NCBI RefSeq assembly: GCF_003790525.1
Contig: NZ_CP033635.1
Direction: 5' to 3' (one strand)
Origin: Escherichia coli
Lineage (GTDB): Bacteria > Pseudomonadota > Gammaproteobacteria > Enterobacterales > Enterobacteriaceae
DNA length: 64,000 bases
In this document: positions 8,715 to 54,363 of the stretch, piece by piece
How the letters are laid out: each line of letters opens with the position of its first letter
How positions within the stretch are numbered: the stretch's first letter is position 1
Notes under the pieces: model-generated
What the model was told of the DNA's origin: nothing
What the model saw: only the letters and a program-made list of their open reading frames with translations
The model's database searches: none
Made by a program: the position numbers and the translations under genes

Positions 8715-9788
8715 TTAGAACTGGTAAACGATACCCACAGCAACGGTGTCGTCTGAACCTACGCCCAGTTTGTTGTCAGAATCGATCTGGTTGATGATGT
8801 AGTCAACATAGGTGGACATGTTTTTGTTGAAGTAGTAGGTTGCGCCCACTTCAAAGTAGTTCACCAGATCAACATCACCGATACCTTCTACGTCTTTCGC
8901 TTTAGATTTGGTGTAAGCGATGGACGGACGCAGACCGAAATCGAACTGGTATTGCGCAACTAACAGAACGTCTTGCGTTTTGTTGGCGAAGCCGCCTTCA
9001 ATTGGCGTAGCGTTACGGGTTTCACCGTAGTTCGCTGCCAGGTAGATGTTGTTCGCGTCATACTTCAGACCAGTTGCCCACTGTTCAGCTTTTTTACCCT
9101 GACCGCGGAATTCGGCTTCCTGGGCGTCGGTACGGTCTGCTGCACCGTAAGCACCTACGATACCAAAGCCTTCGAATTCGTAGCTGATAGAGCCACCGAC
9201 GCCGTCGCCGTTGGAACGCTCAGGAATACCAGCACGTTCGTTTTTGCCCAGGTACTGAACGGCAAAGTTCAGGCCGTCAACCAGACCGAAGAAGTTGGAG
9301 TTACGATAGGTAGCAACGCCGCCTACACGACCAACGAAGAAGTCATCGCTGTATGCCGTGTCACCGCCAAACTCAGGCAGCATATCGGTGTAACCCAGTG
9401 CGTCGTAAACCACACCGTAGTTACGACCGTAGTCGATAGAACCCGCATCAGCGAATTTCAGACCTGCGAATGCCAGACGAGTTTTGTTACCTTTCTGGGC
9501 ATCAGCGCCTTCAGAGTTGTTACCCTGGAAGTTATATTCCCACTGACCGTAGCCGGTCAGATCGGAATTGATTTGTGTTTCCCCTTTAAAACCAAGACGG
9601 GCATAAGTTTTGTCGCCGTTTCCGCCGTAACTGTTTACACCATTGTCTTTAGAAAAATAATGCAGACCGACAGCTTTACCGTACAGATCTACTTTGTTGC
9701 CATCTTTGTTATAGATTTCTGCAGCGTTTGCAGTACCTGCTACTAACAGAGCAGGGACGATCACTGCCAGAATATTGCGCTTCATCAT
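8715..9788 (-). CDS. ompF: Outer membrane porin OmpF, 357 aa, non-K-12 allele
   Basis: Signal peptide [22 protein letters not shown], porin beta-barrel sequence ending in the C-terminal F; several loop segments differ from the 362-aa K-12 protein as I recall it. Confidence 0.95.
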
Positions 9789-9929
9789 TATTTATTACCC
9801 TCATGGTTTTTTTATGACACCTGCCACTGCCGTCAATAAGTTCTGTCAATAAAAATTTACGGAACTATTGATGAGAGTTTGGTGTCTTTATGTGTCTGCA
9901 GGCATCTTTCCATTCAAACTAACGTTTCG

Positions 9930-10000
9930 CTACCGTGAAAGTGCTACAAAGATAAAGATTTGGTTTCAAAAAGAAAAAATATGTAACCAAAAGTAAAATT
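9930..10000 (-). promoter_or_regulatory. ompF promoter-proximal OmpR binding region (F1-F3 sites)
   Basis: Minus-strand sequence TTTACTTTTGGTTACATATTTT (around + coordinates 9978-9998) matches the classic OmpR F1 site; position upstream of the ompF start fits the known promoter architecture. Confidence 0.6.
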
Positions 10001-10348
10001 TAAGGAACTTTGTGAACACCGTCATATTTCCATAGAAGCGTGATGATATTTACAGCAATTTTTATCTATTTATATGATTTCCTTATATTTAAATTAACTA
10101 AAAGGAAATTTTGTTTCTGATGGAAACTTTATCGACCTGGCACTAAATCCTCGTTCAGACATCCAGAACGCCAAAAAATAGTATGAAAATTGTGCTATCA
10201 GCTAAGAAAAAACTAATCCGCAATAAGAATGCGGATTATTTTTTGTGCGCAAATGTTGCAGTGTAATATTTCGTAACAGGATGATCGTTATGGCGGGGTT
10301 GCAAATAGATTGCTTGACTTAACAAACAGATAACTTGACAGAAAGGAT

Positions 10349-10378
10349 AAAAAAAGAGCCAGCGGGCGCTGGCTCTTG
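10349..10378 (-). terminator. Intrinsic terminator of asnS
   Basis: Stem agagccagcg...cgctggctct with a T-run on the minus strand just past the asnS stop. Confidence 0.65.
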
Positions 10379-10389
10379 AAGACGCTAAA

Positions 10390-11790
10390 TTAGAAGCTGG
10401 CGTTACGCGGAGTACGTGGGAACGGAATCACATCACGCACGTTTTGCACACCAGTTACGTAAGCAATCAGGCGTTCAAAACCAAGACCGAAACCTGAATG
10501 CGGAACAGTACCGTAGCGACGCAGATCGCGATACCACCAGTAATCTTCTTTATTCAGGCCCATTTCCAGCATACGCTCGTCCAGCACGTCCAGACGTTCT
10601 TCACGCTGGGAGCCACCAATGATCTCACCGATGCCCGGAGCCAGAACGTCCATAGCCGCAACGGTTTTACCGTCTTCGTTAAGGCGCATATAGAACGCTT
10701 TAATATCTTTCGGATAGTTTTTAACCACTACCGGTGCTTTAAAGTGTTCTTCCGCCAGATAACGCTCATGCTCAGAAGAGAGATCAACGCCCCAGTAAAC
10801 CGGGTTTTCAAACTTCCTGCCGCAGTTTTCGAGAATGGTCACTGCGTCGGTGTAATCCACCTGCGCAAAATCGGCTTCAATGAAGCGTTCCAGACGTGAA
10901 ACGGCATCTTTATCTACGCGTTCAGCGAAGAATTTCATGTCGTCAGCGCGTTCTTCGAGAACCGCTTTGAAGACATATTTCAGCATGGCTTCAGCCAGAC
11001 CCGCGATATCGTTCAGGTTAGCAAACGCCACTTCCGGCTCCAGCATCCAGAATTCCGCCAGGTGACGGCTGGTGTTGGAGTTTTCAGCACGGAAAGTCGG
11101 GCCGAAGGTATAAATTTTGGATAATGCGCAAGCGTAGGTTTCGCCGTTCAACTGGCCAGATACGGTCAGGAAAGACTCTTTACCAAAGAAGTCTTTGTCG
11201 AAATCCACTTTGCCCTGATCGTTACGCGGCAGGTTTTCCAGATCCAGCGTAGAAACGCGGAACATTTCGCCAGCCCCTTCGGTATCAGACGCAGTAATCA
11301 GTGGCGTTGAAACCCAGAAGAATCCCTGCTCGTTAAAGAAGCGATGCAGCGCCTGCGCCAGCGTATGGCGAACGCGCGCGACGGCACCAATCAGGTTTGT
11401 GCGCGGACGCAGGTGAGCGACTTCACGCAGATACTCAATGCTGTGGCGTTTTGCCGCCATCGGGTAAGTGTCTGGATCTTCAACCCAACCAGCAACTTCA
11501 ACCTTGCTGGCCTGAATTTCAAATTGTTGCCCCTGGCCCGGCGACGCCACGACTTTACCCGTCACAATGACCGAGCAGCCGGTGGTCAGACGCAGGACGT
11601 CTTCATTGTAGTTGGGCAGAGAATTATTGATGACAGCCTGTACAGGATCAAAGCAGGAACCGTCATAAACGGCGAGGAAGGAGATGCCAGCTTTTGAATC
11701 TCGGCGGGTACGTACCCATCCGCGCACGGTGACTTCGCTGTCAACGGCTACGCGGCCCTGGAGTACGTCGGCTACAGGCACAACGCTCAT
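10390..11790 (-). CDS. asnS: Asparagine--tRNA ligase, 466 aa
   Basis: Class II aminoacyl-tRNA synthetase; start placed at [13 protein letters not shown], 15 codons inside the ORF-track start. Confidence 0.94.
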
Positions 11791-20317: not shown

Positions 20318-20671
20318 ACTCTCTCCTTATAACCAATTGTTCTTGTTTTGTTAACATTGATAACAATTCGGTCAGTCTGTCGGAGAGACAAGAGAATGCC
20401 AAATATAAATTTTGTGTATCTTTTTCTGAAAATGAACTAAGGATTGAGGGATATATATCACGTGTATTTATTTATTGGATATTCAATAGATGTTGAATCA
20501 ATGAATTACTCGTTCAGGTAATAAAGAAAGATTCATGGAATCTATAAATAAAAGATTTGTCACGTATTGAGTAAACACTACTGGTTTAAATGGCGGTCAT
20601 TTGTTGTTATTATTAAGTCCAATGTCATTTGCAGGCATTATCATATTTACGAAAAAATCAGGATGATAACG
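20318..20671. promoter_or_regulatory. AT-rich divergent control region between ssuE and elfA
   Basis: About 350 bp of strongly AT-rich sequence separating the divergent operons; compatible with the Cbl/CysB-dependent ssu promoter and H-NS-silenced elf promoter. Confidence 0.5.
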
Positions 20672-21211
20672 ATGAAAAAAAATGTATTGGCGGCGTTTAT
20701 AACTGTGATATGTACAACTTCAAGTGTTATGGCGGCTGATGATAATGCCATCACGGATGGCTCGGTTACGTTTAATGGTAAAGTCATTGCTCCTGCCTGT
20801 ACGCTGGTTGCTGCGACGAAAGATTCCGTGGTGACTTTACCAGATGTTAGTGCAACGAAGTTGCAAAGTAATGGTCAGGTTTCTGGGGTGCAAACTGATG
20901 TGCCAATTGCATTAGAAGATTGTGATATTACCGTAACAAAAAATGCAACGTTCACTTTTAATGGCACAGCGGATACTACGCAGATTACAGCGTTTGCTAA
21001 CCAGGCCTCATCTGAGGCTGCTACAAACGTGGCCCTGCAAATGTATATGAATGATGGTACAACGGTCATTACGCCAGACACAGAAACCGGGAATATTTTG
21101 TTGCAGAGTGGAAATCAAACGCTAACTTTTAAAGTAGATTATATCGCTACGGGTAAAGCGACGTCAGGTAATGTCAATGCGGTAACAAATTTCCATATTA
21201 ATTATTATTAA
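20672..21211 (+). CDS. elfA: Fimbrial major subunit ElfA (YcbQ), 179 aa
   Basis: Signal peptide MKKNVLAAFITVICTTSSVMA, conserved pilin cysteine pair, C-terminal aromatic donor strand; RBS (agga) 6-9 nt upstream of this ATG; the ORF-track upstream extension is rejected. Confidence 0.9.
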   Translation: MKKNVLAAFITVICTTSSVMAADDNAITDGSVTFNGKVIAPACTLVAATKDSVVTLPDVSATKLQSNGQVSGVQTDVPIALEDCDITVTKNATFTFNGTADTTQITAFANQASSEAATNVALQMYMNDGTTVITPDTETGNILLQSGNQTLTFKVDYIATGKATSGNVNAVTNFHINYY

Positions 21212-21241
21212 TATCAGCCATTAATTTTTAATTAATTAATA

Positions 21242-21277
21242 CCCTTCCAGTGTCCTGGAGGGGATATTCATTTTTTT
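21242..21277 (+). terminator. Intra-operon attenuator/terminator hairpin after elfA
   Basis: 9-bp stem cccuuccag / cuggagggg (one G-U pair) with a 5-nt loop followed by auauucauuuuuuu; such partial terminators after major pilin genes set the subunit:assembly-protein ratio. Confidence 0.6.
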
Positions 21278-21291
21278 AAGAGTGACTATTT

Positions 21292-21993
21292 ATGAAAACT
21301 TGCATAACAAAGGGAATTGTGACCGTAAGTTTAACGGCAATATTACTCAGCTGTTCGTTCACATGGGCGGCAGGTAAAGGTGGGGTCGGACTTGCAGCAA
21401 CACGTCTTGTTTATTCGGAAGGTGAAGAGCAAATTTCACTGGGTGTACGTAACACCAGTCCGGATGTTCCTTATCTGATTCAGTCATGGGTGATGACACC
21501 AGATAATAAAAAGTCAGCGGACTTTATTATTACACCACCGCTATTTGTGCTGAATCCGGCAAACGAGAACCTGCTACGCATTATGTACATTGGCGCGCCG
21601 TTGGCGAAAGACAGAGAAACTCTTTTCTTCACCAGCGTACGGGCAGTCCCTTCAACAACGAAGCGGGAAGAAGGCAATACCCTGAAGATTGCCACACAAA
21701 GCGTCATCAAACTTTTCTGGCGACCAAAAGGTTTAGCGTATCCCTTAGCCGAGGCTCCGGCGAAACTACGTTGCACTTCGTCAGCTGACATGGTTACGGT
21801 CAGTAACCCAACACCTTATTTCATTACCCTGACAGACCTGAAAATAGGTGGAAAAGTAGTTAAAAATCAAATGATTTCCCCCTTTGATAAATACCAATTC
21901 TCTCTGCCAATGGGTGCCAAAAACAGCAGCGTAACGTACCGAACTATCAATGACTACGGGGCGGAAACGCCGCAACTCAACTGTAAATCGTAA
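21292..21993 (+). CDS. elfD: Periplasmic pilus chaperone ElfD (YcbR), 233 aa
   Basis: PapD-like chaperone fold with signal peptide. Confidence 0.9.
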   Translation: MKTCITKGIVTVSLTAILLSCSFTWAAGKGGVGLAATRLVYSEGEEQISLGVRNTSPDVPYLIQSWVMTPDNKKSADFIITPPLFVLNPANENLLRIMYIGAPLAKDRETLFFTSVRAVPSTTKREEGNTLKIATQSVIKLFWRPKGLAYPLAEAPAKLRCTSSADMVTVSNPTPYFITLTDLKIGGKVVKNQMISPFDKYQFSLPMGAKNSSVTYRTINDYGAETPQLNCKS

Positions 21994-22017
21994 TTCGTCT
22001 TCATTTAAGAGAGCGAG

Positions 22018-24600
22018 ATGTATAGAACTCAACGACAACACAGCCTGTTAAGCTCTGGTGGAGTGCCATCGTTTATTGGTGGGCTGGTGGTGTTTGTGTC
22101 GGCAGCGTTCAATGAACAAGCTGAAACCTGGTTCGATCCAGCCTTTTTCAAAGATGATCCCTCAATGGTGGCTGATTTGTCTCGTTTCGAAAAAGGGCAA
22201 AAAATAACGCCAGGGGTTTATCGAGTCGATATTGTTCTGAATCAGACAATTGTAGATACGCGCAACGTCAATTTTGTTGAGATAACGCCAGAGAAGGGGA
22301 TTGCCGCCTGTTTGACGACTGAAAGCCTGGATGCAATGGGCGTGAATACTGATGCGTTTCCGGCTTTTAAACAACTGGATAAACAAGCGTGTGCGCCATT
22401 GGCGGAAATTATTCCGGATGCCAGCGTAACTTTTAATGTGAATAAACTCCGTCTGGAAATTTCAGTACCGCAAATCGCCATCAAAAGTAACGCTCGTGGT
22501 TATGTCCCCCCTGAACGTTGGGATGAAGGGATCAACGCGCTATTACTGGGATATTCTATTCATAGCAGCGCAGGTAGTGATTCTGGCGACAGCTATTTTC
22601 TGAATTTAAACAGTGGCGTTAATTTAGGCCCATGGAGATTGCGCAACAATTCAACATGGAGTCGCAGTAGTGGCCAAACCGCAGAATGGAAGAATCTCAG
22701 CAGCTATTTGCAGCGGGCGGTGATTCCATTAAAAGGCGAACTGACCGTCGGTGATGATTATACGGCAGGCGATTTTTTTGATAGCGTCAGCTTTCGTGGC
22801 GTGCAGCTGGCGTCAGATGACAACATGCTGCCAGACAGCTTGAAAGGGTTTGCGCCAGTGGTGCGTGGTATCGCCAAAAGCAATGCACAGGTAACGATTA
22901 AGCAAAATGGTTACACCATCTATCAAACTTATGTTTCGCCTGGCGCTTTTGAGATTAGTGATCTCTACTCTACGTCGTCGAGTGGTGATTTGTTGGTTGA
23001 AATCAAAGAAGCTGACGGTAGTGTCAATAGTTACAGTGTGCCCTTTTCCAGCGTGCCATTACTCCAGCGTCAGGGACGCATCAAATATGCGGTGACGCTG
23101 GCGAAATACAGAACCAATAGTAATGACCAGCAAGAAAGTAAATTTGCTCAGGCCACGCTGCAATGGGGTGGGCCGAGGGGAACGACCTGGTATGGCGGAG
23201 GGCAATATGCTGAATATTACCGTGCCGCTATGTTTGGTCTGGGTTTTAACCTCGGCGATTTCGGAGCAATTTCGTTCGACGCGACCCAGGCTAAAAGTAC
23301 GCTGGCAGACCAAAGTGAACATAAAGGGCAGTCATATCGTTTTCTGTATGCCAAAACGCTCAACCAATTGGGCACCAACTTTCAATTGATGGGCTACCGC
23401 TATTCGACGTCGGGTTTCTACACCCTTTCCGACACTATGTATAAACACATGGATGGCTACGAATTTAATGACGGTGATGATGAAGATACGCCAATGTGGT
23501 CGCGTTATTACAATTTGTTTTACACAAAACGTGGCAAACTGCAGGTCAACATCTCCCAGCAATTAGGCGAGTACGGTTCGTTTTATTTAAGCGGTAGCCA
23601 GCAAACTTACTGGCATACCGATCAACAGGATCGGCTATTACAGTTTGGCTACAACACGCAAATTAAAGATCTCTCGCTGGGGGTTTCCTGGAACTACAGT
23701 AAGTCCCGTGGTCAACCTGACGCTGACCAGGTGTTTGCACTTAATTTTTCCCTGCCGCTCAATCTGTTGCTCCCCAAAAGTAATGATAGCTATACCAGGA
23801 AAAAAAATTACGCCTGGATGACCTCTAATACCAGTATCGATAACGAAGGGCACACTACACAAAACCTGGGTTTAACGGAGACACTACTCGATGACGGTAA
23901 TCTGAGCTACAGCGTGCAACAGGGATATAACAGCGAGGGGAAAACGGCTAATGGTAGCGCCAGCATGGACTACAAAGGGGCGTTTGCAGATGCTCGAGTG
24001 GGCTACAACTACAGCGATAACGGCAGTCAACAACAACTGAACTACGCTCTTTCAGGCAGTTTAGTTGCCCATTCGCAGGGTATTACGTTGGGTCAATCAT
24101 TGGGTGAAACTAATGTCCTGATTGCCGCGCCAGGCGCCGAAAATACTCGTGTGGCGAACAGCACCGGGCTGAAAACTGACTGGCGTGGATATACCGTTGT
24201 GCCTTATGCCACTTCTTATCGGGAAAATCGAATTGCACTTGATGCGGCGTCGTTAAAACGTAACGTGGATCTTGAAAATGCCGTAGTAAACGTGGTTCCC
24301 ACCAAAGGGGCATTGGTTCTGGCGGAGTTCAATGCCCATGCGGGGGCTAGGGTATTAATGAAAACATCAAAGCAGGGTATGCCGCTGAGATTTGGTGCAA
24401 TGGCAACACTGGATGGCGCACAAACAATTAGCGGTATCATTGATGATGATGGTTCGCTCTATATGTCTGGTTTGCCGGCGAAGGGAACGATAACTGTACG
24501 CTGGGGCGACGCTCCCGATCAAATTTGTCATATCAGTTACGAGCTTACCGAACAACAAATTAACGCTGCGATTACGCGGATGGATTCAGTATGCGAATAA
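22018..24600 (+). CDS. elfC: Outer-membrane fimbrial usher ElfC (YcbS), 860 aa here
   Basis: Large usher-family beta-barrel protein with conserved C-terminal cysteine pair; an in-frame stop 4 codons upstream fixes the start. Confidence 0.9.
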
Positions 24601-25661
24601 TTTCAGGGGATAGTAGTGTGTTAAGACTCCGGCTTCTTTTGACTGCTGTTTTAATGCTGTGGGGATTTCATGCCGCCGCTTATACCGGGCAGTGTCATAC
24701 CACTCAGGGGAATCCGTATATTGGCGTCAATTTTGGCGTTAAAACCCTGGAGGAGGAAGAGAATACGGCTGGAAAAGTCAAAGATGAATTTTATCAGTGG
24801 AGTGAATCGAATGATTATTATGTTTCCTGCGATTGCGATAAAGACAATGTCAGAAGTGGTCTATGGGCATTCGCTGCGGATTCTCCGTTAGTTTATTTGG
24901 GCGACAACTGGTACAAAATTAACGATTATCTTGCCGCAAAGGTGCTATTAGGAGTGAAAGGTAACACACCTTCGGCCGTACCTTTTGAAAATCTCGGTAC
25001 AGGAAGTGATACCCGATGGCATATTTGCGATCCCGGTGGTCAACGTTTGGGCGGCAAGGGGGCAAGCGGCAATAGCGGAAGTTTTTCACTGAAAATATTG
25101 CAGCCGTTTGTCGGTTCGGTCGTCATTCCTCCTATGGCGCTGGCGCGACTATATGAGTGTTACAACATACCCGCAAGTGATTCCTGCACGACTACAGGTA
25201 CACCGGTTTTAGTGTATTACCTGTCTGGTACGATTAATTCACTTGGCTCATGTTCTGTCAATTCTGGAGAGACAATAGAGGTTGATTTGGGGGATGTATT
25301 TGCTGCCAATTTCCGTGTTGTAGGGCATAAACCGCTTGGATCCAGAACGGCAGAACTCTCAATTCCAGTCAGGTGTAATACCGGAAACGCAGAGCTGGTT
25401 AATGTTAATTTGAGTCTGACGGCAACCAGTGATCCCGATTATCCTCAGGCAATCAAGACATCACGACCAGGTGTCGGTGTTGTGGTCACCGACAGCCAAA
25501 ACAACATTATTTCGCCTGCCGGTGGCACACTGCCGCTATCCATCCCTGACGACGCGGACAGCTTCGCTCGAATGAATGTTTATCCGGTCAGCACGACAGG
25601 TGTACCACCGGAAACCGGGAGCTTTGAAGCCACAGCAACGGTGAGAATAAACTTTGACTGA
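24591..25661 (+). CDS. elfG: Fimbrial tip adhesin-like protein ElfG (YcbT), 356 aa
   Basis: Two-domain fimbrial protein (lectin-like N-terminal part plus pilin domain); 10-nt overlap with elfC. Confidence 0.88.
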
Positions 25662-25672
25662 TATGTGAACGT

Positions 25673-26215
25673 ATGAAAAAGAACACAATATTTCAAGTCG
25701 TTATCTTATCATTCACTTTGCTTTATATGCATGTCGGGATAGCTGGACCTGAACAAGTCAGTATGCATATTTATGGTAATGTGGTCGATCAGGGCTGTGA
25801 TGTTGCCACCAAAAGTGCATTACAAAATATTCATATTGGTGATTTTAATATCAGTGATTTTCAGACCGCGAATACCGTAAGCACTGCTGCTGATTTGAAT
25901 ATCGATATCACCGGTTGTGCCGCTGGTATTACTGGCGCGGACGTCCTTTTTAGCGGCGAGGCTGACACCCTTGTGCCGACACTGCTCAAATTAACTGACA
26001 CAGGCGGAAGCGGTGGTATGGCAACGGGGATTGCTGTGCAAATTCTTGATGCGCAAAGTCAGCAAGAAATCCCGCTCAATCAGGTCCTACCTCTTACGCC
26101 CTTAAAAGCCGGGGATAACACACTCAAATATCAACTTCGTTATAAGTCCACAAAGGCGGGAGCAACGGGCGGTAATGCGACGGCGGTTCTCTATTTTGAT
26201 CTGGTTTACCAGTGA
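25673..26215 (+). CDS. ycbU: Fimbrial-like minor subunit YcbU, 180 aa
   Basis: Pilin-like with signal peptide and C-terminal Y-rich strand (LYFDLVYQ). Confidence 0.88.
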   Translation: MKKNTIFQVVILSFTLLYMHVGIAGPEQVSMHIYGNVVDQGCDVATKSALQNIHIGDFNISDFQTANTVSTAADLNIDITGCAAGITGADVLFSGEADTLVPTLLKLTDTGGSGGMATGIAVQILDAQSQQEIPLNQVLPLTPLKAGDNTLKYQLRYKSTKAGATGGNATAVLYFDLVYQ

Positions 26216-26222
26216 AGGAGTG

Positions 26223-26738
26223 ATGTTGAAACAGATAATCTGGATTCTGTTCTTACTGGGATTAACGGGGGGCTGTGAGCTATTTGCCCATGATGGCACG
26301 GTCAACATTAGCGGATCGTTTCGCCGTAATACATGCGTGCTGGCACAGGATAGCAAGCAAATCAATGTGCAGTTAGGCGACGTCTCGCTGACACGTTTTT
26401 CTCATGGGAATTATGGCCCGGAGAAATCGTTCATCATTAATTTGCAGGATTGCGGAACAGATGTCAGCACGGTTGACGTCACCTTTTCAGGAACCCCCGA
26501 CGGAGTACAGAGCGAAATGCTGTCCATTGAAAGTGGTACGGATGCAGCCAGTGGGCTGGCAATTGCAATTCTGGATGATGCGAAGATATTGATTCCGCTT
26601 AACCAGGCGAGTAAAGACTACAGCCTACATAGCGGTAAGGTGCCATTAACTTTTTACGCGCAATTGCGACCTGTCAATAGCGATGTGCAGTCGGGTAAAG
26701 TGAATGCCAGCGCGACATTTGTACTTCATTATGACTAA
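26223..26738 (+). CDS. ycbV: Fimbrial-like minor subunit YcbV, 171 aa
   Basis: Pilin-like; RBS aggag precedes the ATG at 26223; the ORF-track extension is rejected. Confidence 0.87.
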   Translation: MLKQIIWILFLLGLTGGCELFAHDGTVNISGSFRRNTCVLAQDSKQINVQLGDVSLTRFSHGNYGPEKSFIINLQDCGTDVSTVDVTFSGTPDGVQSEMLSIESGTDAASGLAIAILDDAKILIPLNQASKDYSLHSGKVPLTFYAQLRPVNSDVQSGKVNASATFVLHYD

Positions 26739-27441
26739 TACGTGGAACAGATTGGCGCTCTTGATTTTCGCCGTTTTATCGCTGCTGGTGGCGAGTGAAT
26801 TGCAGGCAGGAGTGGTGGTCGGCGGAACGCGATTTATCTTTCCGGCAGACAGAGATTCGATATCTATTTTATTGACTAATACCAGTCAGGAATCCTGGCT
26901 TATTAACAGTAAAATCAATCGCCCAACGCGTTGGGCTGGGGGTGAAGCGTCGACAGTACCAGCACCATTACTGGCCGCTCCGCCACTTATTCTCCTGAAG
27001 CCCGGTACTACAGGCACATTGCGCTTGCTGAGAACGGAAAGCGACATCTTGCCCGTGGATCGCGAAACGCTATTTGAGTTAAGCATTGCCAGCGTGCCAT
27101 CCGGCAAAGTTGAAAATCAGAGCGTAAAAGTGGCGATGCGCTCGGTATTTAAACTGTTCTGGCGACCCGAAGGTTTGCCGGGCGACCCGCTGGAAGCTTA
27201 TCAACAATTACGCTGGACACGGAATTCGCAGGGTGTACAACTCACTAACCCAACGCCTTACTACATTAACCTGATTCAGGTGAGCGTAAATGGTAAAGCG
27301 TTAAGTAATGCGGGAGTTGTGCCACCTAAAAGCCAGCGTCAGACAAGCTGGTGTCAGGCTATAACACCGTGTCATGTCTCCTGGCGGACGATAAATGATT
27401 ACGGCGGGTTGAGTGCAAAGAAGGAGCAAAATCTGCCCTGA
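26731..27441 (+). CDS. ycbF: Second periplasmic pilus chaperone YcbF, 236 aa
   Basis: PapD-like chaperone; start overlaps the ycbV stop. Confidence 0.87.
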   Translation: MTNTWNRLALLIFAVLSLLVASELQAGVVVGGTRFIFPADRDSISILLTNTSQESWLINSKINRPTRWAGGEASTVPAPLLAAPPLILLKPGTTGTLRLLRTESDILPVDRETLFELSIASVPSGKVENQSVKVAMRSVFKLFWRPEGLPGDPLEAYQQLRWTRNSQGVQLTNPTPYYINLIQVSVNGKALSNAGVVPPKSQRQTSWCQAITPCHVSWRTINDYGGLSAKKEQNLP

Positions 27442-27451
27442 AACAGGCTCG

Positions 27452-27465
27452 GAAAACGTTTGCGC
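27452..27465 (+). promoter_or_regulatory. Candidate PurR operator upstream of pyrD
   Basis: gaaaacgtttgcgc matches the palindromic PurR box core (GCAAACGTTTTC); pyrD is a known PurR regulon member. Confidence 0.5.
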
Positions 27466-27551
27466 TTTTTTTGCCACAGGTCAATTCCCTTTTGGTCCGA
27501 ACTCGCACATAATACGCCCCCGGTTTGCACACCGGGAATCCAGGAGAGTTC

Positions 27552-28562
27552 ATGTACTACCCCTTCGTTCGTAAAGCCCTTTTCCAGCTCGATCCAGAGC
27601 GCGCTCATGAGTTTACTTTTCAGCAATTACGCCGTATTACCGGAACGCCGTTTGAAGCACTGGTGCGGCAGAAAGTGCCTGCGAAACCTGTTAACTGCAT
27701 GGGCCTGACGTTTAAAAATCCGCTTGGTCTGGCAGCCGGTCTTGATAAAGACGGGGAGTGCATTGACGCGTTAGGCGCGATGGGTTTTGGATCTATCGAG
27801 ATCGGTACCGTCACGCCACGTCCACAGCCAGGTAATGACAAGCCGCGTCTCTTTCGTCTGGTAGATGCCGAAGGTTTGATCAACCGTATGGGCTTTAATA
27901 ATCTTGGCGTTGATAACCTCGTAGAGAACGTAAAAAAAGCCCATTATGATGGCGTCCTGGGTATTAACATCGGCAAAAATAAAGATACGCCGGTGGAGCA
28001 GGGTAAAGATGACTATCTGATTTGTATGGAAAAAATCTATGCTTATGCGGGATATATCGCCATCAATATTTCATCGCCGAATACCCCAGGACTACGCACA
28101 CTGCAATATGGCGAAGCGCTGGATGATCTCTTAACCGCGATTAAAAATAAGCAAAATGATTTGCAAGCGATGCACCATAAATATGTGCCGATCGCAGTGA
28201 AGATCGCGCCGGATCTTTCTGAAGAAGAATTGATCCAGGTTGCCGATAGTTTAGTTCGCCATAATATTGATGGCGTTATTGCAACCAATACCACGCTCGA
28301 TCGTTCTCTGGTTCAGGGAATGAAAAATTGTGATCAAACCGGTGGCTTAAGTGGTCGTCCGCTTCAGTTAAAAAGCACAGAAATTATTCGCCGCTTGTCA
28401 CAGGAATTAAACGGTCGCTTACCGATCATCGGTGTTGGCGGCATTGACTCGGTTATCGCTGCGCGTGAAAAGATTGCTGCGGGGGCCTCACTGGTGCAAA
28501 TTTATTCTGGTTTTATTTTTAAAGGTCCGCCGCTGATTAAAGAAATCGTTACCCATATCTAA
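27552..28562 (+). CDS. pyrD: Dihydroorotate dehydrogenase (quinone), 336 aa
   Basis: Matches PyrD from [21 protein letters not shown]; class 2 DHODH. Confidence 0.95.
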
Positions 28563-54275: not shown

Positions 54276-54363
54276 TGGCGGAAGCGCAGAGATTCGAACT
54301 CTGGAACCCTTTCGGGTCGCCGGTTTTCAAGACCGGTGCCTTCAACCGCTCGGCCACACTTCC
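54276..54363 (-). tRNA. serT: tRNA-Ser (UGA anticodon), 88 nt, class II tRNA with long variable arm
   Basis: Minus-strand sequence GGAAGTGTGGCCGAGCGGTTGAAGGCACCGGTCTTGAAAACCGGCGACCCGAAAGGGTTCCAGAGTTCGAATCTCTGCGCTTCCGCCA: acceptor stem pairs, anticodon loop CT-TGA-AA, encoded CCA end. Confidence 0.93.

Follow-up and report, generated by a model that had tools for sequence, protein, structure and literature searches.

The region 20318-27441 of the 64-kb stretch of Escherichia coli DNA analysed here (hereafter the window) holds seven open reading frames, all on the plus strand and without internal stops, which are flanked by ssuE and pyrD as in SMS-3-5. Position 20318 is the first base past the divergent ssuE start codon. 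Across 7124 bp the region shares 99.7% identity with the annotated elfADCG-ycbUVF locus of SMS-3-5, and six of the operon proteins are 100% identical to their SMS-3-5 counterparts. We regard it, with high confidence, as the known E. coli elfADCG-ycbUVF (ycb) chaperone-usher fimbrial operon of the gamma1 class, an orthologue of bcf, here carrying private changes in the usher ElfC. This identification, proposed in the original prediction from the sequence, matches both the RefSeq annotation and published work, and its coordinates are correct. The junction spacings (+80, +24, -10, +11, +7 and -35 nt in gene order) likewise agree with the tight or overlapping junctions described there. The features of the locus are as follows:

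20318..20671, no strand: divergent ssuE-elfA intergenic control region, 354 bp, 30.5% GC; its K-12 counterpart is H-NS-silenced and SlyA-bound
20381..27451, no strand: rough bounds of the elf island, which some E. coli have and others lack, from comparison with elf-less E. coli and from its lower GC than the flanks
20585..20613, plus strand: best sigma-70-like site, TTTAAA-17-TATTAT with TG, a consensus match only; hexamers kept in K-12
20672..21211, plus strand: elfA (ycbQ), major fimbrial subunit, 179 aa; 100% identical to SMS-3-5 ElfA, best family BcfA
21238..21277, plus strand: stem-loop followed by T7, candidate partial terminator and 3' stabiliser, from a terminator scan, folding and allele comparison
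21292..21993, plus strand: elfD (ycbR), PapD-like chaperone, 233 aa, from its family match; cleft R38 and K140 kept
22018..24600, plus strand: elfC (ycbS), usher of the outer membrane, 860 aa as against 866 in every other genome, from FimD, Pfam and NF011740
22115..22115, plus strand: private SNP GCA>GAA giving ElfC A33E, at -3 of the predicted signal-peptidase I site AQA/E, from usher and genome comparison
22550..22563, plus strand: junction of a private 18-bp in-frame deletion, with ElfC SFSGAN 180-185 lost, from sequence comparison
24591..25661, plus strand: elfG (ycbT), two-domain tip-adhesin-like subunit, 356 aa, from LpfD structure 5AFO and a Fimbrial domain
25673..26215, plus strand: ycbU, minor subunit (BcfE/FimF-like), 180 aa, from its family match
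26223..26738, plus strand: ycbV, minor subunit (FimF/BcfF-like), 171 aa, from its family match
26704..27441, plus strand: ycbF, second PapD-like chaperone, 245 aa as annotated, from NF008483; cleft R and K kept

The NCBIfam best matches of the operon proteins are BcfA/B/D/E/F-type families, with curated cut-offs passed by ElfC (NF011740, 1719 bits against a cut-off of 995) and YcbF (NF008483, 546 bits against 357). ElfC shows the Pfam domains PapC_N (39-181), Usher (195-771) and PapC_C (783-845), and matches FimD structures over 25-865 (E=1e-263). ElfA, YcbU and YcbV match the BcfA/E/F and FimA/F/I families, while ElfG matches the LpfD structure 5AFO through its N-terminal domain (E=3e-26), followed by a Fimbrial domain at 211-356. 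ElfD and YcbF, which share 35% identity, both match FimC/PapD structures; R38 and K140 of ElfD are invariant in the chaperone alignment, and YcbF retains the aligned TR and K. By the established chaperone-usher pathway, ElfA and the minor subunits ElfG, YcbU and YcbV would pass to the periplasm, where ElfD and YcbF would cap them, and the usher ElfC would polymerise them into a rigid fimbria with ElfG, an LpfD/BcfD-like adhesin, at its tip. The elf fimbriae are of the gamma1 type, rigid, and produced from a single Ptet promoter, and those of the K-12 and O157 Sakai alleles are assembled on the cell surface (PMC7098969).

The operon of K-12 and O157:H7 (elfADCG-ycbUVF or ycbQRSTUVF; ELF, E. coli laminin-binding fimbriae) shares with the window the ssuE/pyrD locus, the seven genes, their order and the hairpin. 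The K-12 locus is 92.7% identical overall to that of the window, which carries the minority SMS-3-5-type allele. At least 80% of the elf locus is held by 3997 of 5426 genomes, at one chromosomal place. In elf-less E. coli ssuE adjoins pyrD, with about 75 bp of unrelated DNA in place of the island, and the operon has 46.9% GC versus 51-54% in its flanks; elf forms a 7-kb island of lower GC between the two genes. In its AT-rich upstream region, its GC content and its presence/absence polymorphism the locus resembles horizontally acquired DNA. At gathering thresholds, Rfam models gave no match in the operon, their only hits across the window being the PyrD leader and one tRNA.

The presence of two chaperones and three minor subunits had been described as unusual, which proves overstated. 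The order subunit-chaperone-usher-adhesin-subunit-subunit-chaperone is shared by the window and 25 of the 69 loci related to it, drawn from many genera (e.g. Salmonella arizonae L031 and Pseudocitrobacter L006/L008). This is how operons of the Bcf/Ycb clade are typically laid out, and in its clusters the extra chaperone is already known (PMC3373541). Throughout the related loci the first chaperone always best-matches ElfD and the last always YcbF; hence the two are separately conserved lineages that probably serve different subunits. The cited model for such additional chaperones is the 987P (fas) system, which has more than one PapD-like chaperone per operon (PMC3373541) and subunit-specific chaperones, but differs from elf in clade and gene order.

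Among individual systems, Salmonella enterica bcf is the published elf orthologue (PMC7886704, PMC5343171). In bcfABCDEFG(H), as in L031, the genes for the major subunit, chaperone and usher come first, followed by the adhesin, a pair of minor subunits and the second chaperone, just as in elf; protein identity to elf is approximately 40-50%, and bcfH is missing from elf. The bcf operon also has a strong hairpin after bcfA, although this is unrelated in sequence to that of elf and lacks a U-run. Type 1 fimbriae (fimAICDFGH) are, like elf, of the gamma1 class, with a full-length match between FimD and ElfC and with FimC matched by both YcbF and ElfD. However, the type 1 system has one chaperone, the phase-variable fimS switch and the mannose-binding FimH, whereas elf lacks an invertible element, encodes two chaperones and carries an LpfD-like adhesin. 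The layout and regulation of the elf operon are ordinary and already known, its class, orthology and function all having been published.

The region upstream of elfA was correctly described as an AT-rich stretch of about 350 bp: only 0.16% of 354-bp windows across the 64 kb have a GC content as low as that of the ssuE-elfA intergenic region. A promoter consensus scan revealed no enrichment of sites (9 found versus 12.1 expected), and offers one weak candidate only. The 355-bp intergenic fragment of K-12 is bound by SlyA in EMSA, and the operon appears in the H-NS regulon list and is cryptic (PMC5797941), in agreement with the earlier statement that it is normally silent. For K-12, the suggested test of elf expression in an hns mutant is already in the literature (Korea et al. 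2010, cited in PMC5797941). Transcription would start in the AT-rich intergenic region, with H-NS silencing it and SlyA relieving the silencing; given that the fragment is 94% identical to its K-12 counterpart, we infer that this regulation carries over to the copy in the window. In these respects elf is a textbook cryptic fimbrial operon that is easily derepressed.

A hairpin with a U-run had been predicted between elfA and elfD, with its absence upon RNA folding named as the refuting outcome; folding recovers it, with the stem at 21242-21263 and the T7 run. The core stem, formed by CCCTTCCAG and CTGGAGGGG around the loop TGTC, has 9 pairs, including one G.U and 6 G-C, and is extended by outer AAUA/UAUU pairs (21238-21241 with 21265-21268). 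The T7 run at 21271-21277 begins 7 nt past the core stem and 2 nt past the extended one. The element ranks first among the terminator-like sites in the region, with a folding energy of -16.3 kcal/mol and z = -3.0 to -3.6 relative to dinucleotide shuffles. Energy alone is nevertheless weak evidence for a role, because 21% of coding control windows hold a hairpin equally stable. The 70-nt minimum free energy of the post-elfA spacer was similarly weak (22nd percentile among windows of the same operon) on account of the AT-richness of the spacer, and this measure was replaced by a single-hairpin comparison and by covariation counts. All five E. coli alleles retain at least 8 stem pairs; C>U has arisen twice independently opposite G, which wobble pairing accommodates, and one pair that closes the loop is mismatched. 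Escherichia sp. E1V33 shows two compensatory pairs in the stem. Among the hairpin alleles 94% of the cells are paired, as opposed to at most 65% when the alignment is slid; the covariation signal comes from six sequences with both double changes in one of them, and 19 of 500 shuffles do as well. More broadly, a hairpin of -10 kcal/mol or lower follows the first subunit gene in 61 of 69 related loci, the hairpins being unrelated in sequence, and the mean hairpin energy at this position is -16.6 versus -12.3 in coding controls (p=1e-7).

A comparable arrangement was reportedly described for pap by Baga et al. in 1988, with a terminator after papA and expression of the distal genes by read-through. 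The papBA transcript has, like elf, a structured 3' end right after the major-subunit gene, and the distal assembly genes need read-through (PMC5927463). In pap, RNase E additionally cuts the transcript between papB and papA; elf is devoid of an upstream regulator gene. On balance, we favour the view that the elfA-elfD hairpin and U-run end a part of the transcripts and protect the 3' end of elfA, so that, as in pap, the major subunit would be made in excess over the assembly proteins. Production of the fimbriae from the single upstream Ptet promoter (PMC7098969) implies read-through of the hairpin. The term internal attenuator used in the original prediction is hence a reasonable inference, backed by the family-wide positional conservation, though a pure 3'-end stabiliser would fit equally well.

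The latter alternative, wherein the hairpin solely protects the mRNA 3' end after processing or decay without attenuating transcription, appears possible but rather unlikely. It draws on the precedents of pap and cfa, as the papA mRNA 3' end is an RNase-resistant terminator structure and cfaAB shows differential decay (PMC5927463), and on the offset of 7 nt between the U-run and the core stem together with the lack of a U-run after the hairpin in most orthologous loci, which argue for a stabiliser rather than a terminator. Against it, a T6-T7 run is kept directly downstream of the hairpin in the Escherichia alleles, and the site is picked up by the terminator scan. A hairpin without any role, present as a neutral palindrome or by chance, as its equally stable peers in coding windows might suggest, is very improbable in light of the GC-rich stem within a spacer of 30% GC, the z of about -3, the pairing kept among alleles with compensatory changes, and the recurrence at the same position in the related loci. 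The conservation in position, in dozens of gamma1 operons of unrelated sequence at this site, of a structured element after the major-subunit gene supports a general role in setting stoichiometry.

The statement that all seven genes are intact and complete holds for the open reading frames, but not readily for ElfC, whose function is rendered doubtful by the 18-bp in-frame deletion and A33E. In comparison with the K-12 and O157 versions, the ElfC of the window alone has both changes, and these are the sole protein-altering differences from SMS-3-5 within the 64 kb. With regard to A33E, residue 1 of mature FimD aligns with E36 of ElfC, and position 33 is A, G, S, V, L or T in 73 other ushers and never charged; the change was found in none of 4010 genomes. 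The deletion, at 22556/22557, lies between 7-bp direct repeats (TATTCAT) of which one copy is left, and was found in none of 3737 genomes. It removes SFSGAN from the barrel strand beta1 (174-188), including G183, one of approximately 78 invariant columns in 70 ushers, none of which is gapped there. These two private changes suggest that the operon, though open in all frames, may fail to assemble fimbriae, a proposition to which we assign about even chances. A stronger version, in which the ELF usher has been knocked out in this lineage by two independent private mutations with the frame left open, a form of 'silent' pseudogenisation that pipelines call intact, is put forward only tentatively and seems to us unlikely; the fact that both protein-altering differences of the 64 kb fall in elfC hints that loss of the usher may have been selected rather than drifted.

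A serious contender, whose probability we place slightly short of even, is that the operon is fully functional and both ElfC changes are neutral, with the barrel shifting its register by drawing on the neighbouring variable loop, and signal-peptide cleavage still taking place at that site or close by. In the AlphaFold2 model the 860-aa ElfC retains a closed barrel, with beta1 (174-186) rebuilt from former loop residues and a loop shortened to 3 residues, and has a pLDDT of 79.2 versus 78.9 for the intact protein and the same pTM. Since the loop after usher beta1 also varies naturally by up to 7 residues, the deletion may be tolerated. Furthermore, small residues at 27-30 provide alternative signal-peptidase sites, VSA/A and SAA/F (read by eye), just upstream of the A33E site. 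Weighing against neutrality are the ungapped, invariant G183, the avoidance of charge at position 33 and the absence of either change from some 4000 genomes, and AlphaFold2 is no test of stability. Errors in the deposited assembly could be suspected from the uniqueness of both changes among thousands of genomes and from the clustering in elfC of 2 of only 3 differences from SMS-3-5, but are quite improbable, as the identical 860-aa protein exists in NCBI under three accessions from two contigs, the deletion between direct repeats is a classic slippage product, and an 18-bp in-frame loss with a transversion is unlike the typical homopolymer-type sequencing error. The lack of a frameshift or stop does not amount to functional integrity: conservation-aware checks brought out two probable usher lesions that had been missed by reading at the level of open reading frames and by RefSeq naming.

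Elsewhere in the operon, elfG is the most divergent gene, with 84.5% nucleotide and 89.9% protein identity to its K-12 counterpart. We reject diversifying selection on ElfG, as most codon differences from K-12 are synonymous (102, versus 36 that change the amino acid), and the signal peptide accounts for 11 of those 36.

Megablast of the operon against 5426 complete E. coli genomes recovered strain SMS-3-5 with 99.7% identity across the full operon length, and K-12 derivatives with 92.7%. The matched genes of SMS-3-5 are annotated as elfA, elfD, elfC, elfG, ycbU, ycbV and ycbF between ssuE and pyrD, in agreement with the name originally given to the locus. All seven are ORFs without an internal stop:

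20672-21211, plus strand, elfA
21292-21993, plus strand, elfD
22018-24600, plus strand, elfC
24591-25661, plus strand, elfG
25673-26215, plus strand, ycbU
26223-26738, plus strand, ycbV
26704-27441, plus strand, ycbF

The successive junctions (+80, +24, -10, +11, +7 and -35 nt) are tight or overlapping, and the region upstream of elfA is AT-rich, both as the original prediction had it. This region is the 354-bp spacer to the divergent ssuE, with position 20318 being the first base past the ssuE start codon; its GC content of 30.5% is equally low in 0.16% of 354-bp windows across the 64 kb. The operon itself has 46.9% GC, against 51-54% in its flanks. The window is strongly AT-rich at one further place, 9750-10400 (GC 0.31-0.33), which by the annotation of SMS-3-5 lies between asnS and ompF. 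On the plus strand 3' of the ycbF stop codon (27442-27557), no terminator-like site was found, and hence elf transcripts could run from upstream into the PyrD leader (Rfam RF02373, 27484-27557, 97.9 bits).

Domain searches identify PapC_N, Usher and PapC_C in ElfC, which also resembles FimD structures (E=1e-263). It passes curated NCBIfam cut-offs, as does YcbF, whereas the best families for the remaining proteins are Salmonella BcfA/B/D/E/F, LpfD or FimF. Residues 33-356 of ElfG can be aligned to 5AFO, the structure of the LpfD adhesin, and the C-terminus of the protein holds a pilin domain. Everything essential on this operon is already known. Its predicted cryptic status matches its published listing as a cryptic member of the H-NS regulon, which SlyA overproduction raises 2.7-fold and whose 355-bp ssuE-elfA fragment binds SlyA (PMC5797941). 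Korea et al. 2010, as summarised in the same paper, found the operon to be repressed by H-NS and obtained functional fimbriae upon insertion of a constitutive promoter. When driven by one Ptet promoter, the ycb genes of O157:H7 Sakai yield rigid fimbriae of the gamma1 type, which favour early biofilm formation and attachment to MDCK cells (PMC7098969). Heparin binding and a requirement in epithelial invasion have been reported for the usher, YcbS (PMC4914927), and the Salmonella orthologue of the system is Bcf (PMC7886704; PMC5343171). The single point going beyond annotation is that the usher of the present strain is probably damaged despite its open frame, as judged from comparison with other ushers.

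The original prediction of seven intact genes holds for the reading frames but is doubtful for the function of ElfC, which carries an 18-bp in-frame deletion and the substitution A33E. Together with a synonymous change in ompA (41852, S284S), these make up all three differences between the entire 64-kb window and SMS-3-5. By our own arithmetic for the window, the chance that two of three random differences would hit one 2.6-kb gene is about 0.5%, which is a hint of selection on the usher, or of relaxed constraint, rather than proof. The deletion, situated between two TATTCAT repeats, removes SFSGAN (residues 180-185) and leaves a protein of 860 residues as opposed to 866 elsewhere. It was found in none of the 3737 complete genomes carrying elfC, and the A33E SNP in none of 4010. 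The 860-residue ElfC is nonetheless a natural, rare allele, because the identical protein is on record under three accessions (WP_121831863.1, AYW29979.1 and RLY46277.1).

None of 72 ushers of related loci has a gap in this region; all of them keep Y179 and G183, and 70 have F, V, I or Y at position 181, so that a hydrophobic residue there is nearly universal. In an alignment of 70 usher sequences, G183 belongs to the roughly 78 columns that never vary. The deleted residues align with N145-N149 of mature FimD. In the AlphaFold2 model of intact ElfC (pLDDT 78.9) they lie within a strand of the barrel (174-188), after which comes a loop of low confidence (189-195), whereas in that of the window protein (pLDDT 79.2) the strand is rebuilt from former loop residues and the loop is reduced to three residues. 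As the modelled strand is restored and the shortened loop varies in length among ushers, tolerance of the deletion is conceivable, a matter that the models cannot decide. The second change, GCA to GAA at 22115, affects the -3 position of the signal peptide cleavage site AQA|E, as predicted by alignment with mature FimD. Position 33 is A, G, S, V, L or T in 73 other ushers and charged in none. Given the -3/-1 rule that governs cleavage by signal peptidase I, a glutamate here should block processing at AQA|E, though cleavage might shift to VSA|A or SAA|F, the neighbouring sites on the upstream side.

The hairpin and U-run proposed at 21242-21277, 3' of elfA, are both present. A fold calculation gives -16.3 kcal/mol, with z between -3.0 and -3.6 relative to shuffles that keep the dinucleotide composition. 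The stem, CCCTTCCAG/CTGGAGGGG, has 9 pairs including one G.U, a TGTC loop and optional outer AAUA/UAUU pairs, and a T7 run follows at 21271-21277. A stem is retained at this position in 5 E. coli alleles and in Escherichia sp. E1V33: two alleles have independent C>U changes opposite G, O157 has lost the loop-closing pair and nothing else, and E1V33 has two pairs altered on both sides (U-A to A-U and C-G to U-A). In this alignment 94% of the stem cells are paired, against at most 65% with the 3' arm slid, and the observed covariation was reached in 19 of 500 column shuffles; with six sequences, the covariation support within Escherichia is modest. Beyond the genus, 61 of 69 related loci possess an individual hairpin with an energy at or below -10 kcal/mol directly 3' of the first subunit gene, albeit of unrelated sequence. 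These are more stable than the best hairpins of length-matched coding windows (mean -16.6 versus -12.3 kcal/mol, Mann-Whitney p=1e-7), even if 21% of the control windows match the -15.8 of the window hairpin.

U-runs accompany the Escherichia alleles and a few other loci, most of the 69 being devoid of one, and the main rival explanation is that the hairpin is a pure stabiliser. Any termination here must be partial, since a single upstream promoter yields fimbriae (PMC7098969). Together with the precedent from pap of a structured mRNA end after the major subunit (PMC5927463), this makes a combined partial terminator and 3'-end protector the best reading of the element, by analogy; it would raise ElfA over the assembly proteins.

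The original prediction also deemed two chaperones and three minor subunits unusual, a view that is overstated in the light of the comparative data. A chaperone-profile scan of one genome per bacterial species yielded 79 loci, of which 69 were usable, and their ORFs were classified against the seven window proteins. A distal second chaperone occurs in 25 of the 69, from Escherichia, Pseudocitrobacter, Enterobacter, Citrobacter, Kluyvera, Klebsiella, Franconibacter, Buttiauxella, Rahnella and Salmonella, most commonly in the order subunit, chaperone, usher, adhesin, subunit, subunit, chaperone. Being shared by so many genera, this layout is typical of a clade that is both old and widespread. 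Earlier work had remarked on the extra chaperone and drawn a parallel to 987P, whose chaperones are subunit-specific (PMC3373541). The second chaperone best matches YcbF in all but one of the 25 loci (the exception, L043, matches ElfD). ElfD and YcbF are only 35% identical, and both keep the cleft Arg and Lys; the separate conservation of the two lineages suggests non-redundant roles. Enterobacter sp. RIT418 (NZ_QBJD02000006.1, loci L009 and L043) has two complete two-chaperone operons in tandem. Outside Enterobacterales, Burkholderia cepacia LK29 (L067) has a related cluster with three chaperone ORFs, in the order subunit, subunit, chaperone, chaperone, usher, subunit, subunit, chaperone. Two non-enterobacterial assemblies, 'Colwellia sp. 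TT2012' (L005, 766 bp) and 'Amycolatopsis orientalis KCTC 9412' (L026, 317 bp), have ElfD fragments 97-98% identical to E. coli on tiny contigs of these lengths, which almost certainly stem from contaminating E. coli DNA.

The gene most divergent from K-12 is elfG (84.5% nucleotide and 89.9% amino-acid identity). Its sequences in complete E. coli genomes form two classes that no intermediates bridge: in 174 genomes the gene is at least 99% identical to the window allele, and in 3870 its nucleotide identity is about 85%. The pattern recalls the pair of BcfD alleles known from S. Newport (PMC5343171). As the codon differences from K-12 are mainly synonymous (102, against 36 non-synonymous, 11 of which lie in the signal peptide), they point to old allelic lineages under purifying selection.

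The operon is a clean 7.07-kb presence/absence polymorphism, with limits by alignment at about 20381 and 27451. About 1400 of the 5426 genomes keep only the first ~60-63 bp beside ssuE, and the region upstream of ssuE is therefore mostly island DNA in elf-positive strains. In one strain lacking elf (L003, 6001-6236), the ssuE-pyrD spacer is 236 bp, of which about 75 bp is unrelated DNA. This frequency of absence fits the published association of Ycb with phylogroups A, B1, D and E, mutually exclusive with the Auf of B2 (PMC3559732). Elsewhere in the window, a tRNA gene (54279-54363, minus strand, Rfam 57.5 bits) is annotated as tRNA-Ser between hyaA and yccA in SMS-3-5. In two other E. coli strains, the elf operon is interrupted by an IS1 element (PS2Canimalfeces12) or its usher is annotated as two pieces (PI12).
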